DNA of 62,295 nt, filler included, from Globobulimina sp. (taxonomy: Eukaryota), in assembly GCA_003354225.1 (NCBI GenBank). It is 10 parts of 10 records of this genome, joined end to end, with 100 filler letters (N's around TTAATTAATTAA, not from the genome) between each part and the next. Parts side by side here need not be neighbours in the genome. Positions count along the whole stretch, not along the records: positions 31,240 to 37,378 come from PIVH01000356.1; positions 37,479 to 43,616 come from PIVH01000357.1; positions 43,717 to 49,850 come from PIVH01000358.1; positions 49,951 to 56,081 come from PIVH01000359.1; 6 more parts are not named here. The stretch is one strand, 5' to 3'. The notes under the pieces were generated by a model. It was given only the letters and a program-made list of their open reading frames with translations. It had not been told where the DNA came from and ran no database searches. Made by a program: the position numbers and the translations under genes. Positions 33,382-56,081 of this stretch are shown here, piece by piece. Every line of letters begins with the position of its first letter. The first letter of the stretch is position 1.

Positions 33382-36082
33382 TTAGTGTCGAATAAATCGT
33401 ATTTGTTCGCACTGAATTCTTTCTCTGTTTCCTTTTCTGTTACCTGAAGCATTTACTATTTGTGCTTTCCATCCAGCTCCAATACACAATGGTGAATAAG
33501 ATGTACCAAAATTATAAACATATACTACTGAATCACATTTAACATCATTTCCAGTTATTTCAATTTTCTTAAATTTTGAACCTGGTATTTTATTAATCTT
33601 ATCAAGAATTGGCAACATTTCTGGAGGACTCACACAATTTGCAACACCCAAATTAGTAACAAGACATTGCAATTCCTGTATTCCCATAAACAATTTATTA
33701 ATAATATCAAATCGTAAAACATAATCTGTATCACCTTTGACCCAAATATTGATTCCAAGCGGAATTGCATTTGTCTCCACATCTAACTTTTGTCTGTCCA
33801 TATTAATTCCTTTCATAATTGTCTTTTTCATATATAATGGAATATCAGTAACTGACCCATTTACCATTTCAATTATTTTATTCATAACCTGTATATCTGT
33901 TCCATTCCAATCCGGATTAATATGATTAATATCAAATAATTGATCCAATTTTGTAAGAGCACGTATAATAACTTTGTAGTTTTCGTTTGTAGACATATTT
34001 CGAATGGATTTAAACTTTAATTTATATGTCTCATGTGGTGGTTGTATAAATAATCGCTCCGACTCATAACCATAACAACTGACAAATGCACAGTTAAAAT
34101 ATCTCAAACATTCTCCATATTCATCCAGATTCATTTCTAAAATAATACCATCATTAGTAGCAAAAATGGTGGCAATTTGTAATTTTGTAGTCGTAGAGGT
34201 CGGTGAATTAAATCTGGCAATAAATTTGTTAAAATATATCGCAGACACTCCGTGATAAAATGATGCAATGTTTGTTTCACCCATTTTAATACCAAAACAG
34301 TTCACTGTTTCAATCAATGTTTTACTCCAATGCCAATATTCTCGATTTCTCTCCAATGAATCATTATTTTCATCCAATTTTCGAAAGGTAGAACTGAATT
34401 TATTTGACAATATATCATAATCAGTATACAAAATAATACTTAATACATTATCGGCTTGTATGCTTTGCCCTGATTTTATTCCATAAATATAATTAGAACC
34501 TAATATTTCACTTTGAATACATTTAATTTGTATGGATGCATTCCATAACAAACACGCTTTCTTCAAAGCATTATCAAATGCAATTTTATCAATGCAATAT
34601 ATTTTATTCATCGTAACCTCTTCTTTTATGGATGAATATTTTGGTTTGGAGCTTAATTCACGTTTTTGAGCATATTCCTGATAAACCCAATAATTATATT
34701 CCTGTCCAAAGCTGTAATCCAACTCCTTTCTCACTGCATATTGAGAACATCAAACAACATTTAATATACTCACACAAGTCACAGAACAGATACTTATTTA
34801 CATACTTGTGTTTTCATTCTGTTTTTCTTCAGCAACCGCTACCTCTGTACGTACGTAAACAGTCATAGCAAAAATGTAATTTATAAATAAAATAACTTTT
34901 AGTGAGCGTAGTCATAAACTTATTTGTTTTCACTCGATTAACGCCTCGTATTTGTGTCAATCCTTCACGTTTGCTTTCCAAATACGTTTTCAATTTAAAT
35001 AACTCAGAATCATGACACATGCTTTGCTTATTATTACGTTTCTTTTCTATATTTTCATTATTTTTATCGTTTGCTAATGGATTAATAATACGATATCCAA
35101 CATCAACAGAATGGATAAAATGGCAATGTATTGTATCTAATATATCGATATACGCAGATAATTGCGAATCATTTCCAGTTTCAAATACCTTTTCTGTTTC
35201 TCGTTGACGATTATTCCGCGAATATATAGCACAATTTGCGATGTTACAATGTTTTATTTGATTATTTAATGTGTCATGAATGTATTGAAAAGCTTTATAA
35301 TTCTCATTTTTAGAGCTAATATCTTCATTTAAATGCACATGTAAAATATGATGGTAATCATTCACAACAAACTCTTTATTTGACATTAAATATTTTATAA
35401 ATTTATCCATGTCTTTATCAGCACAGCTTTGGTCGTTAAATTCTTGATAAAATTGAAATGTTTGAGCTAATCTTTTCAATCCCTCGCAATTCTCAATAGC
35501 AGAACAATGCGGAGGTGCTATTTTTAATGATTGTGGATCAATATAAGAATAACGTTTGGCAGCGTCAATTTTAAATGGATGCCGATCAATTTTCATTTCC
35601 TCGTTTTCTCGCATTACTTGATTACTGTCATTTTCTTGTAATTGCATTTCGTGTGTTTCAGCAACAGATTTTAGATCAATTTCTTTTCCTTGACATTTTC
35701 CAATATATTTCATCCATTTATTGAGTGCTTTTTCATTGTTTGAACGGAATTTATAATCGCTGCATGTTTGTTCATCATTGGATTTTTTGAGTTGAAATTG
35801 AAAATCATTTTTCTTTAAATTAGTGGTATTTTTTATTCTAATAATCTCATTATATACGTTCAAATCTACAGAGTCAATAATCTTTGTGCTGTGTTTGTTT
35901 TTATACACTGTTAAGGTGTTATTACTTGACAATGTGAGCCATTTGTTCTCGTACATTTTCCATAATTTGGAATAATACGCTAAGAATGATTCATAGATAA
36001 TAAAAATATGTGTTTCTTCATCATTTGGATTATCGACTGTTTCTGTCGGTTGTGTGTCGTTATTTGTGATGGCTGATTGCAT
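33382..36082 (-). CDS. PH domain + Cys/His domain + ADP-ribosyltransferase-like domain; introns 34845-34896 and 34734-34805 flank a 39-nt microexon
   Basis: PH: KWLTLS...LTVYK...YKFRS...KWMKYI; ART-like: FYHGV...PTSTT...GIILE...ESERLF. Confidence 0.8.
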
Positions 36083-36209
36083 AGTTTGCGCTTTGTGCTG
36101 TATTATTTTGCGGTGTATATTAAAATTTGCATGTTCATTTTTCTGAGAAGGGTGACATGATTAATTAGTTCATTTTTTTAACTTCGCTGTTGTTAATCGA
36201 ACTTTGCCA

Positions 36210-37378
36210 ATGGCAGATAACAAAAACATTGTACGTCCTATGCGCCGAAAGGCAGCAGTGGAAGAATTATTGTCAACAGAAAAGACATATGTTCATTTAA
36301 TGAGCAAACTCATGGAAATGTTTGTTCAAAAATTATATGGGAGTACCTCTATTTTATCGAACGAAGATTATCAAATATTATTTCCATCAGATATTCATGT
36401 CATATTAGGGCTGAATCAAACGTTCTTAAAAGAACTAACAAAAGTAATTGAATCTGACAATCTCAACAATGAGAATTCAAAAATTGGCGATGTCATATGT
36501 TCATTTTGTCCACATTTTGTATGTATTATACGTTCTTATCTTCTCTACAAAATAATATTACATTATGTATACAAACAATATATCAACAAAAAAATAGAAA
36601 ATGTATCAAAATTATTTAAATAACTACAGTGCTGCAGCCACTCGCTTAGCTAAATTGCGATGTAACCCATCCTCTCCATTCTCCATTTTCTGTGCTAGCC
36701 AGCGTGCGGAATCATATTTTAATAACTTGCCACTCGAACAATTAATAATTTTGCCAATTCAACGAATGCCTCGATACAAAATGTTATTGAACGAAATAAT
36801 AAAACATACACACACCGAACATCCCGATTTGAGCCAATTAAAAAAAGCATTATGTGAAATCTCGCAAGTTAATGATGTAATCAATGAACGAATGAAAGAG
36901 TTTGATTCCAGGATCAAAGTGCAAAATATTGAAAATAGATTGCTTACAAACGGTAAAATCACAAACTTAGTGACACCGTCCAGGAGGTACATAAAACAGG
37001 GTCGTTTATGCAAACTTGACACCAAAGACGAAGCTCCGCAGCATTTTCTATTCATATTATTCTCTGATTCTATATTATATGCATCGACATCGCTGATGGG
37101 GGACAAGTTAATATTTGGCAATTTATTAAAATTCAATTCCAGATTCAAAGTGAAACAAACCAGTCCATACATTAACGTTCATAACATTCAGAATCTATTT
37201 CAGATACATTCGACAACGGAATCGTTTATGTTATGCGCTGAGAGCAACAAAGAAATGCACGAATGGATCAATGTTATCAACCAGACCTATAACGAATATA
37301 TGATACTTGCATCCACTGTGAAGAATGCGTCATTTGATATGAAACATGTCTTTGCAGAAAGTCTCCAAATTCCCGACG
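36210..37378 (+). CDS. RhoGEF (DH-PH, FGD-like), intron 36519-36597, 3' truncated
   Basis: EELLSTEKTYV, KMYQNYLNNY, ILPIQRMPRYKMLL, HPD, then PH domain (IKQGRL...LFSDSILY...EWINVI). Confidence 0.92.
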
Positions 37379-54147: not shown

Positions 54148-54265
54148 GTTCGAAATTTAAAGTTTTTTTTTTGAGTATAAAGTTATCCAAATATTAATTA
54201 TCAAATATTTATAAATTTCAAAAACAACAGAAAAATAATAAAACATATATAATACATTAGCTTAA

Positions 54266-56081
54266 TCATACATAAGCCTTTTCCACCTCAACATGTATAT
54301 CAATAATCTTATTCAAACCATTCGCAATAATTGTAATATCACCTCCCGCGTCAACTGCTTGTTTAATATTTTCAAATAGATCTTGTTGTTCATTTCCTAA
54401 AACCAATGTAAGATCCTCATAATTGCTATCCAAGCACACAACACTTCTCTTCCCTTCATCAAATGAATCAAATTCATATTTTCGAACCATTTTCATTGCA
54501 TCCTCTTTTTTTCTTTCTTGAATATATTGATATAACCGCTTACAAACTACTTTATTGTTATTCATATCTAATAACTGACACAATTGCTCCACATTCTCGC
54601 AATGATGAAACAGTTCACCGTCACATACATCCACTTTCTCCATTGCACCAATGAATTTATCCTTTAATTTCTGTGGGAATTTAGCTCCTTTATTTATTGA
54701 ATTCACCCAATTAATGCAATCATTAACATCCCAATCCATCATATTTCTATCAACTTTAACAATTTTCCTTTTAATACGTTTAGAATTCTTGACTTGATCC
54801 TTTGATGTTTGTTTTGTTAACAATACCCTTTGTATTCCATGCTTTTGATCCAATATCTCGCAAGAAAAGCTATTCGAGGACCAGCCACCAATACTTCTTG
54901 CAAATAATATTTCGCATTCATCCGGAAACTTGGAGAGCCAGGAAACGTCACAACAATATACATTCTTATCATTTTTAAACAGCTCATCAATTTCTAATAT
55001 CATTCCTTTCTTACCCATAAATTTTGTTGCTACATGTTCTTGCCACGAGGTGCTGACATAGGTAATAAAATATCTGTCCTTCACCAATTTGTCCGGCAAA
55101 TACACGTTATTTAAACCCGCATATACCTTAATATTATCATCAATCAATAACAATTATTTTAAACAGATATATTATACAAAGGTAGAGGCAGATACGCATA
55201 TTAATATTGACAATATATGGAATGCAACAATTTTAAGATATATTTATAAAAACCATACCTTAAACTGACCAAATTCTTTTTGACTCAACGCATATATGGC
55301 CCAATACAAACAATAATCAAACCATTTCCATTTTTTATAATTGCCACTGCGATGTTGATATCCTATGTCGACGCAACATTTCTCGCTGCCTGTCATCAAT
55401 ACCAACGCCAACATTTGTCCTTTGGTCAAAGGCTTCCCCATTAAAACATGTCGTTTTGATTTCATCTTTCTTTTCACAATTTTTTCAACGATATATTTTC
55501 CATTTGCAGTCGGCCATAAATCATCTTCAAATCCATTACATTTCACTTCATTCATTAACTGATCATAAAACCCAGCTCCATCCTCGCGTCGTTTTAGTGC
55601 CGCAAACTCTTCCTCTGTCGGTATATATAATGGGCGATTTTCATATTTATTTGAGCTCATAATAAATTCTTTCATACTCGATCCCTTTTCCTCCTGTTTG
55701 ACATAGGTAGGAGGATGCCTATATAACGCCATATGACATTTATAATCAGTACGTATTTGACCACGTTCTGTCTCTTTGAATGCCTGACAATTTTGTTTAT
55801 GCGGACACAGCGGTTTATCACTAAATTCATCTTGAAAATGTGTCTCATCCTCAATATGCACCAAATACTCTTCATCAAATGCTTTATGTTCAATCATGTC
55901 GCGATAAATAGGACATATCATCGGATCTAATTTCTCCTCTTTCCCTTCTTTCTCATCATCATTGAGCATATATTCGCATGTGATGCACGACTGTATTGTA
56001 TGATGATAAACACCAGTAACTACCAAATATAATCCTTTGTTTTGTATAACATCCACGTTAAATGTATTCATTTTTATGTTC
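54266..56081 (-). CDS. PBZ-like Zn finger + ART-like domain + SAM + eIF5A-C-like domain; intron 55127-55258; 5' truncated
   Basis: Spliced FK|VYAGL...YVSTS...GMILE...DVSWLSKFPDECEILF; SAM-like WDVNDCINWV...DGELF. Confidence 0.75.

Follow-up and report, generated by a model that had tools for sequence, protein, structure and literature searches.

A very large foraminiferal family of ARTC-like ADP-ribosyltransferase-fold domains with a conserved histidine at the strand-1 arginine site

Introduction

Four stretches of a 62,295-nucleotide segment of the Globobulimina sp. genome assembly GCA_003354225.1 (the window) encode true ADP-ribosyltransferase (ART)-fold domains of the cholera-toxin-like branch, that is, the branch with an arginine-serine-glutamate (R-S-E) signature (ARTC), and the solved structure closest to them is that of rat ART2.2. 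The family to which they belong, known to date from foraminifera, retains the Ser and the two Glu residues of the R-S-ExE signature and carries a conserved His in place of the Arg, with Ser, Thr, or Ala at this position in a sister subfamily. The window consists of ten whole contigs, from 6,159 down to 6,114 bases long and separated by N spacers; because these are whole pieces of a fragmented assembly, they are arbitrary as to content. ART domains are carried by contig 6 (31240-37378; domain W1), contig 8 (43717-49850; domains W2 and W3), and contig 9 (49951-56081; domain W4, of the sister subfamily). Relatives drawn from public protein clusters are designated by P-numbers (P0001, etc.).

The cholera-toxin-like ARTs described from eukaryotes are chiefly a few extracellular enzymes of animals, and ADP-ribosylation within the cell is attributed to PARPs. 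Neither the ART fold nor the ARTC branch is new. What appears, from sequence, to be new is a very large family, centred on foraminifera, in which ARTC-like domains form part of multidomain, cytoplasmic-looking proteins, together with a conserved His (or Ser or Ala) at the Arg site and a conserved tandem of one degenerate and one intact domain. A literature search on foraminifera, Reticulomyxa, or Rhizaria in combination with ADP-ribosylation, ARTC, or PF01129, covering listings and article passages, returned only PARP surveys (e.g. PMC4245714) and unrelated work.

Results

Translation of the window confirms the four sets of ART motifs on which an earlier, sequence-only reading of this DNA had based its proposal of an expanded ART-like family. 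The motifs are FYHG / PTSTT / ESERLF in the open reading frame (ORF) containing W1 (33382-34749, minus strand), LYEG / PRS / QEMRLLF in that containing W2 (45358-47562, plus strand), FYHG / PTSTT / ENERLF in that containing W3 (47618-49850, plus strand), and VYAG / STS / ECEILF in that containing W4 (54266-55153, minus strand). The translations likewise bear out the replacement of the strand-1 Arg, which is His in W1 and W3, Glu in W2, and Ala in W4. The further claim that the copies form one family holds in three comparisons. BLASTP relates W1 to W3 at 2e-16, W2 to W3 at 1e-28 (over ~450 residues), and W1 to W2 at 4e-11, with the paralogues W1-W3 only ~25% identical. When a profile hidden Markov model (HMM), A1, built from W1-W3 and two relatives with W4 left out, is run on the 609 six-frame ORFs of the window, W4 scores 1.1e-9 and the next ORF 0.045. 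Comparison by hhalign of a profile of the W1-W3 subfamily (A2; 48 sequences) with a profile of the W4 subfamily (A3; 19 sequences) gives a probability of 98.4 and an E value of 9e-15, with shared columns in which Y-H-G is matched by V-Y-[S/A]-G, P-T-S-T-T by V-S-T-S-W, and E-x-E-R-L-F by E-C-E-I-L-F.

The fold was modelled for W3, and W1, W2, and W4 are tied to W3 by sequence homology. The AlphaFold2 model of W3 (426 residues including conserved flanks; 48-sequence alignment; residue 1 at base 47975) has a pLDDT of 89.8 and a pTM of 0.89. In a Foldseek search of the PDB, the model matches rat ART2.2 first (5e-6), and all of the matches listed are ARTs of the R-S-E type but one, an unrelated chain at rank 28. 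Structural alignment of the model with ART2.2 by VIA-align gives Z 12.1 and a root-mean-square deviation of 3.4 Å over 193 residues, with model residues 8-257 corresponding to chain residues 4-206; the other matches give lower scores (9.6 for XopAI and HopU1, 9.3 for ExoS, ~7 for C3). A search independent of Foldseek, over 48,161 representative PDB chains, again places ART2.2 first (Z 11.8), and 18 of 18 chains at Z>=5 are ARTs. In the model, F-Y-H-G-L forms a strand at residues 157-161, T-S-T-T lies on a strand at 178-181 that is followed by a helix, and E-R-L-F forms a strand at 228-231; the three ART motifs lie on the expected strands and in the expected order. The model also revises one element of the sequence-only reading, which had described a conserved cassette preceding the ART core: the motifs of the cassette are present, and, because model residues 8-257 align to ART2.2 residues 4-206, they belong not to a separate cassette but to the N-terminal helical half of the ARTC-type domain itself. 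Chance resemblance of the motifs was considered as a candidate explanation and is ruled out by the homology and fold statistics. We conclude that the four copies are almost certainly homologous to one another and share the ART fold.

The assignment to the R-S-E branch agrees with the second and third motifs. The S-T-S-type motif is present in W1, W3, and W4 and degenerate in W2 (R-S-I-A), and the ExE motif is present in W1 (E-S-E), W3 (E-N-E), and W4 (E-C-E), with W2 lacking the second Glu. Assignment to the histidine-tyrosine-glutamate (H-Y-E; ARTD) branch is not supported: despite the His, the second motif reads S-T-T and has no Tyr, and diphtheria toxin, a representative of that branch, aligns to the W3 model at only Z 4.1.

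The family is very large, as the sequence-only reading had supposed from four copies. A profile search over 1.84 billion representatives of 50%-identity clusters yields 4,007 clusters at E<=1e-3, a number inflated by fragments and isoforms inasmuch as the clusters come largely from de novo transcriptome assemblies; 3,005 clusters are found at E<=1e-10 and 799 at E<=1e-30. In agreement with a very high copy number, family members occur on three of the window's seven eukaryotic contigs. Thirty members were looked up: 16 are from Bolivina argentea, 7 from Nonionella stella, and 7 from unnamed ENA, Logan, JGI, or NCBI records. Messenger RNA transcriptomes of Nonionella and Bolivina have been published (PMC8153729, cited here in part), and the corresponding EukProt sets probably come from these transcriptomes; the string 'ADP-ribos' is absent from the main text of that article.

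To define the family signature, we took a census of 154 relatives plus the window ORFs against HMM A1 at E<=1e-5, which gave 177 domains in 157 sequences. The strand-1 residue is His in 124 of the 177 domains (Gln in 11, Cys in 8, Thr in 8, Arg in 5), so that in this family His is the conserved residue at the Arg position and not a sign of degeneracy. The second-motif Ser is present in 162 domains, the first Glu in 151, the second Glu in 155, and the combination of His, Ser, and Glu in 116. The results show a family signature of Y-H-G on strand 1, P-T-S-T-T on strand 2, and E-x-E-[RK]-L-F on strand 5. In the W4 subfamily the strand-1 residue is Ser, Thr, or Ala in 19 of 19 sequences and is never Arg.

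W2 and W3, which the sequence-only reading had listed as separate ORFs, are two domains of one protein. Gene B (43733-49850, plus strand; cut at both contig ends) has exons at 43733-45171, 45237-45300, 45358-47553, and 47618-49850, with introns at 45172-45236, 45301-45357, and 47554-47617, all of them GT..AG. Upon removal of the introns, 1,977 codons are open, without a stop, to the contig end. The Nonionella stella protein P0003 (2,076 residues) is colinear with gene B over its residues 74-1999 at 42-51% identity, with residues 74-542 corresponding to 43757-45175, residues 516-1271 to 45163-47550, and residues 1276-1999 to 47627-49846. Because the joined frame is open and colinear with P0003, W2 and W3 belong to a single polypeptide; the count of four domains on three contigs stands, and the genes number three, with one pair of domains linked. 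W2 (45382-46227; HMM residues 9-290) reads Y-E-G / R-S-I-A with the second Glu replaced by Arg, and W3 (48002-48838) reads Y-H-G / T-S-T-T / E-N-E-R. The layout of gene B, with a Cys4 finger and then a SAM-like domain set between an upstream degenerate ART-like domain and a downstream intact-looking one, is kept in another genus.

The degenerate-plus-intact arrangement extends beyond gene B. Two or three ART domains are present in 19 of the 157 sequences, and in seven of these 19 tandem proteins (P0001, P0003-P0006, P0008, P0010) the upstream copies lack the second Glu, reading mostly D/Q-x-R-L, and the last copy keeps [YF]-H-G / T-S-x-[TS] / E-x-E, as in W2-W3; the upstream domains of P0001, P0003, P0004, P0005, and P0010 are degenerate in the manner of W2. 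The proposal that the window holds a mixture of active and dead copies in the sense of decaying paralogues is therefore not upheld: W2 is a domain of the protein that contains W3, and seven of 19 tandem relatives are arranged alike.

In binary-toxin enzymes with two domains, one ART-like domain is inactive and the other active, and an ExE pair usually goes with arginine targets. On balance, we consider that the intact-looking domains of the family are probably catalytically active, and the modelled fold and retained motifs suggest that W1 and W3 bind nicotinamide adenine dinucleotide (NAD+) and act inside the cell, most likely by mono-ADP-ribosylation of proteins; the same NAD+ binding and intracellular action may be proposed, less surely, for W4. 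According to this hypothesis, W1 and W3 would transfer single ADP-ribose units to proteins (or, alternatively, would simply hydrolyse NAD+), catalysis would depend on the second Glu, and NAD+ would be held by the strand-1 His in the way that diphtheria-toxin/PARP-type enzymes use theirs. Degenerate W2 would lack catalysis and have an adaptor or regulatory function, much like its counterpart in the clostridial binary-toxin enzymes with two domains. Membrane targeting would fall to the PH domain and self-association to the SAM-like domain. In known ARTs, the H/Y and R/S residues hold NAD+, and the catalytic Glu is common to both branches (PMC10789625, cited throughout from an excerpt).

Several observations weigh against the interpretation of these domains as ARTC-type enzymes. 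No window copy has the strand-1 Arg of the R-S-E branch. None of the four window copies passes a Pfam ART cut-off: W3 scores 13.6 bits against a cut-off of 22.3, and W1 and W2 have no Pfam ART match. Searches of PDB sequences with profiles A1, A2, and A3 found no ART. In favour of the interpretation, 3 of 53 W1-W3-type relatives do pass, namely P0001 (26.6 bits; positions 29-209 of the 222-position PF01129 profile), P0012 (38.1 bits; the one of 20 passing in its scan), and P0139 (25.6 bits; the one of 31 passing in its scan). Against it, too, is the census, in which 150 domains keep the Ser and the second Glu and 32 of these have neither His nor Arg on strand 1 (Gln, Cys, Thr, Ser, or Val), so the strand-1 site is not strictly constrained. 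The inflation of the cluster count by fragments and isoforms counts on the same side, as do human ARTC3 and ARTC4, which lack the triad. Both of these are thought to be inactive (PMC10789625).

A rival explanation is that all copies are pseudoenzymes, in which the ART fold has been kept as an NAD+-, ADP-ribose-, or protein-binding module or as a scaffold and catalysis has been lost together with the Arg. Of the 177 family domains, 172 have no Arg at this site, nor has any of the four copies in the window. The tolerance of Gln, Cys, Thr, Ser, and Val at strand 1 in 32 otherwise intact-looking domains and the presumed inactivity of ARTC3 and ARTC4 accord with such a loss, and W2 and its orthologues, conserved despite a lost catalytic Glu, indicate that non-catalytic ART domains are indeed kept in the family. 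However, the Ser (162/177) and the two Glu residues (151/177 and 155/177) are kept much more strictly than a scaffold would need; the His is itself conserved (124/177) and is the residue that holds NAD+ on strand 1 in the other ART branch (PMC10789625); and the contrast between degenerate upstream copies and an intact last copy in seven of 19 tandems implies selection on the triad of the last copy. We therefore regard loss of catalysis throughout the family as a substantial but distinctly less probable explanation than activity of the intact-looking domains.

The partner domains of W2 and W3 lie between and after them in gene B. The Cys4 finger (46972-47067, plus strand) has the RanBP2-like pattern W-x-C-x2-C-x3-N-x17-C-x2-C, in which W70, C72, C75, N79, C97, and C100 are invariant in 21 sequences. 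The RanBP2-type finger (PF00641) has the consensus W-x-C-x2-4-C-x3-N-x6-C-x2-C, and the gene B finger thus has 17 residues between the Cys pairs versus six. The window copy has no Pfam match, and the modelled finger gives weak Foldseek matches to ZRANB2 finger 2 (E 3.1 and 4.0; TMt 0.60 and 0.82) at a pLDDT of only 46-69. The SAM-like domain (47218-47499, plus strand) lies in the same modelled inter-domain stretch (265 residues; pLDDT 75.8), at model residues 152-245, where pLDDT is 82-97 by blocks of ten. It aligns to the Ph SAM (1pk1_C) by VIA-align at Z 8.4 and a root-mean-square deviation of 1.9 Å over 66 of 66 residues, a Z near 8 being middling for small helical domains, and 50 of the 50 matches listed in the fold search are SAM or PNT domains or SAM-carrying fusions, including the SAMs of SARM1; Foldseek gave no significant match (E at least 0.41) and Pfam none. 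C-terminal of W3 is an alpha/beta extension (48749-49222, plus strand; model residues 259-416, mostly at pLDDT >80), which the whole-model fold searches hardly cover; it is also present after W2, the two copies being conserved relative to each other, and it is kept in P0001 and P0002. P0003, the orthologue of gene B, begins with a sub-threshold PH match (20.1 bits).

W1 lies in gene A (33382-36082, minus strand), which encodes a PH domain, a His/Cys-rich module, W1, and a C-terminal region in exons at 34897-36082, 34806-34844, and 33382-34733 (including the stop). The PH ORF and the W1 ORF both align, in order, with one Bolivina argentea transcript, P0174 (70% identity over residues 1-169, 73% over residues 186-633), and two short GT..AG introns flank a 39-base micro-exon, the translation of which agrees with P0174 (KVAVAEEKQNENTM in gene A, KVEINDEEKHNDNIM in P0174). 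Because P0174 spans both ORFs and the two introns and micro-exon join them, the PH ORF and W1 are one gene. The PH domain (35693-35995; residues 56-156 of ORF 34829-36160) matches PF00169 at E 9.3e-6 and 26.6 bits against a cut-off of 25.1, and a PH domain is listed in precomputed Pfam annotation for 10 of 59 W1 relatives. The His/Cys-rich module (34901-35506; ORF residues 219-420; D..H...H, C-x4-C, H-x-H-x3-H) precedes W1 and has no match in Pfam; it matches 46 relatives, directly before their ART domains. A likeness of the module to p300 TAZ1 was considered and dropped (E 5-9, not significant). W1 itself spans 33853-34704 (Y-H-G / T-S-T-T / E-S-E-R; HMM A1 residues 16-299). By eye, without a predictor, the start of the gene A product has no leader-like hydrophobic stretch but a polar stretch followed by the PH domain, which argues for a cytoplasmic protein.

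W4 lies in gene C (54266-56071, minus strand), which encodes a His/Cys-rich (PBZ-like) module, W4, and a C-terminal region in exons at 55259-56071 and 54266-55126. The intron (55127-55258; 132 bases; GTATGG..TTAAG) contains three stops, and transcripts P0160 and P0166 align across it; it splits W4 (54893-55498; V-Y-A-G / V-S-T-S / E-C-E-I-L-F), the N-terminal half of which is in the upstream exon. W4 matches Pfam ADPrib_exo_Tox at E 4.4e-4 and 20.1 bits, under the cut-off of 23.4, and 17 of the 19 subfamily sequences have matches at E<=1 to Pfam ART (best 1e-6) and to ADPrib_exo_Tox (best 7.3e-7). The PBZ finger (PF10283) has the consensus C-x5-C-x6-H-x5-H with [FY]-G and [FY]-x-H. The gene C module (55709-55915, minus strand) reads C-K-Y-G-x-x-C ... 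C-H-x3-[FY]-x-H in relatives, with ~17 residues between the halves; it is seen in 7 of 19 relatives, those long enough to cover it, and Pfam zf-CCHH (PBZ) matches only 2 of 19 (E 0.54). The pattern suggests, and does no more than suggest, a PBZ consensus with a long insert.

Further features of gene C and its relatives were noted. P0160, P0166, and P0172, three of the seven W4-subfamily relatives with an N-terminus, start M-G-N or M-G-C-C, which hints at possible N-myristoylation or palmitoylation and hence an anchor on the cytoplasmic side of a membrane; the window gene C starts M-N-T-F. The subfamily has near-invariant cysteines within the ART domain (G-C-D-C-N-Y-D-L-C, C-C-D-V-S-W, D-E-C-E), and window W4, reading S-E-K-C-C-V-D-I-G, is without some cysteines of the first group. 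A stretch at 54515-54742 (minus strand) is SAM-like by eye (W-D-V-x-D-C-x-x-W-V ...), has no Pfam match, and lies beyond the end of most relatives.

The comparison of the three genes modifies the statement that the partners of the ART domain differ each time. PH and SAM-like partners do differ between genes, and are supported by Pfam and by fold, respectively, but the partners are not wholly different, since each of the three genes has a His/Cys-rich module ahead of its ART domain (of W3 in gene B) and the gene B orthologue P0003 also has a weak PH match at its start. The 'C4 Zn finger' and the 'PBZ-like' partner are sequence patterns, with weak fold matches for the former and weak profile matches for the latter. 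Elsewhere in the family, ART domains are joined to CAP-Gly (P0025, P0129), NACHT (P0058), Trypsin_2 (P0037), UBA_7 (P0115), EF-hand (P0131), fn3 (P0129), and RanBP finger (P0152) domains.

The range of partners bears on the earlier suggestion that the family resembles a repertoire of immune or conflict effectors, that is, a set of NAD+-consuming or target-modifying death or defence domains diversified in an arms race. Such a repertoire would accommodate the huge lineage-specific expansion with paralogues only ~25% identical, the fusions to NACHT (E 9.8e-11) and to a trypsin-like protease, and the resemblance of the SAM-like domain to SARM1 SAMs, among others; bacterial conflict systems often contain ART domains (PMC3482391, cited in part). 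However, the NACHT fusion occurs in one of 51 relatives scanned and nowhere in the window, and the PH, CAP-Gly, EF-hand, and UBA partners point to membrane, cytoskeleton, and signalling. Stable orthologues of the same architecture in other genera (73% identity for gene A, 42-51% for gene B) fit conserved cellular roles better, the supposedly dead copy is a conserved domain and not a product of decay, and NCBIfam and PADLOC models run against seven proteins gave nothing relevant. We consider an immune or conflict role improbable, and we retain intracellular ADP-ribosylation by the intact-looking domains as the preferred reading.

The surroundings of the three genes bear on their origin. Contigs 1-3 and 6-9 have a G+C content of ~26-39% (2-kb windows) and encode kinases, a major facilitator superfamily transporter, an anoctamin-like protein with a SAM domain, DSP and NIF phosphatases, a RhoGEF-PH protein, a LINE-type (long interspersed nuclear element) retroelement, and a sulfatase, all eukaryotic genes. 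That the ART genes are non-foraminiferal, having come from a giant virus or other contaminant, could be argued from the nearest ESM Atlas cluster by features, which is 95% viral (Nucleocytoviricota; score 0.97; a rotifer cluster is also near), and from the presence of foreign contigs in the window. Against such an origin are the GT..AG introns, including those around the 39-base micro-exon; the ~30% G+C of the ART genes, as on the other eukaryotic contigs; their eukaryotic neighbours, the RhoGEF-PH gene on contig 6 and the sulfatase on contig 9; the named foraminiferal source of 23 of the 30 sampled relatives; and a search with the W4 profile (A3) across 2.9 million viral contigs, which gave 90 pattern matches and no confirmed relative. 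A contaminant origin is thus very improbable, and we treat the genes as foraminiferal.

Other features of the window were as follows. The RhoGEF-PH gene (36165-37378, plus strand) has two frames, probably split by an intron, and stands head to head with gene A. The anoctamin/PHM7-type membrane protein on contig 2 (6946-9951, plus strand) has a C-terminal SAM domain found by Pfam (E 1.4e-10), and SAM fusions seem to be common in the source organism. Contig 7 carries a LINE-type retrotransposon, that is, one without long terminal repeats (38937-43262, plus strand), with an unbroken 1,441-codon ORF for endonuclease, reverse transcriptase, and RNase H. Contig 4 (18760-24899; G+C 42-46%) encodes a P22-like portal protein (19370-21571, minus strand; Pfam E 6e-138) and is phage or prophage DNA of an associated bacterium within the assembly. 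Contig 10 (56183-62041) is bacterial-looking, with a DUF1254 protein that has a lipoprotein-like start and a CvfB-type protein. Contig 5 (G+C 43-50%) has a 1,467-residue open frame (25000-29402, minus strand) without a Pfam match.

Discussion

If the intact-looking domains are active, the family would constitute a large intracellular set of ARTC-like enzymes in which a conserved His occupies the Arg site, the R-S-E triad would not be obligatory in the ARTC-like branch, and the active site would be a natural hybrid of the two classical ones. The family would then represent a major regulatory or defensive system in foraminifera, which are ecologically important protists with almost no molecular genetics. 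There is also a consequence for annotation: standard Pfam cut-offs miss nearly all members of the family.

A far-reaching extension, which we think unlikely as a whole, is that foraminifera possess cytoplasmic ADP-ribosylation signalling at kinome scale. Hundreds to thousands of active H-S-ExE writers would embody a third catalytic configuration, between R-S-E and H-Y-E; every writer would be coupled to a PBZ-related zinc module for reading ADP-ribose; and PH, CAP-Gly, SAM, and other domains would aim the writers at membranes and at the fast microtubule and reticulopod machinery.

Among known systems, the vertebrate ecto-ARTs (ARTC, PF01129; rat ART2.2, PDB 1gxy/1og3/1og4) are the closest. The W3 model aligns to ART2.2 at Z 12.1 over 193 of 223 residues, including the N-terminal helical half; three foraminiferal relatives pass PF01129; and the S-T-S-like and ExE motifs lie on the same strands. 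There are also differences: sequence identity of W3 to ART2.2 is only 16-17%, the foraminiferal domains have His or Ser/Ala at the defining Arg, and thousands of foraminiferal members stand against about five vertebrate ones. Whereas the foraminiferal proteins are long and multidomain, with PH, SAM-like, and finger modules and with a tandem that includes a degenerate copy, the animal ARTC enzymes are single-domain and either secreted or glycosylphosphatidylinositol-anchored (PMC10789625).

The bacterial R-S-E toxins and effectors (HopU1, XopAI, ExoS, C3, the Tre1-type 6drh, and iota/VIP2/C2-I) share the fold, at Z 9.6 down to 6, and the order of motifs. Their scores are below that of ART2.2, and, unlike them, the foraminiferal proteins show no secretion or translocation parts, are encoded by eukaryotic genes with introns, and have His in place of the Arg. 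The H-Y-E branch (diphtheria toxin, PARPs) shares a strand-1 His followed by Gly, as in Y-H-G, and this His is the NAD+-holding residue of that branch (PMC10789625); the foraminiferal domains differ in having S-T-T instead of Tyr, in having ExE, and in a fold score of Z 4.1 versus 11.8 for ART2.2. Finally, the SAM-containing NAD+ enzymes, tankyrases and SARM1, resemble gene B in joining, in one polypeptide, a SAM-type fold and an NAD+-site domain, the latter predicted in gene B, with SARM1 SAMs among the top matches of the SAM-like domain (Z 8.4). Tankyrase filaments form via SAM domains (PMC10789625), and the catalytic domains of these enzymes are, in contrast to the ARTC-like domains of the foraminiferal family, of the PARP type in tankyrases and of the TIR type in SARM1.

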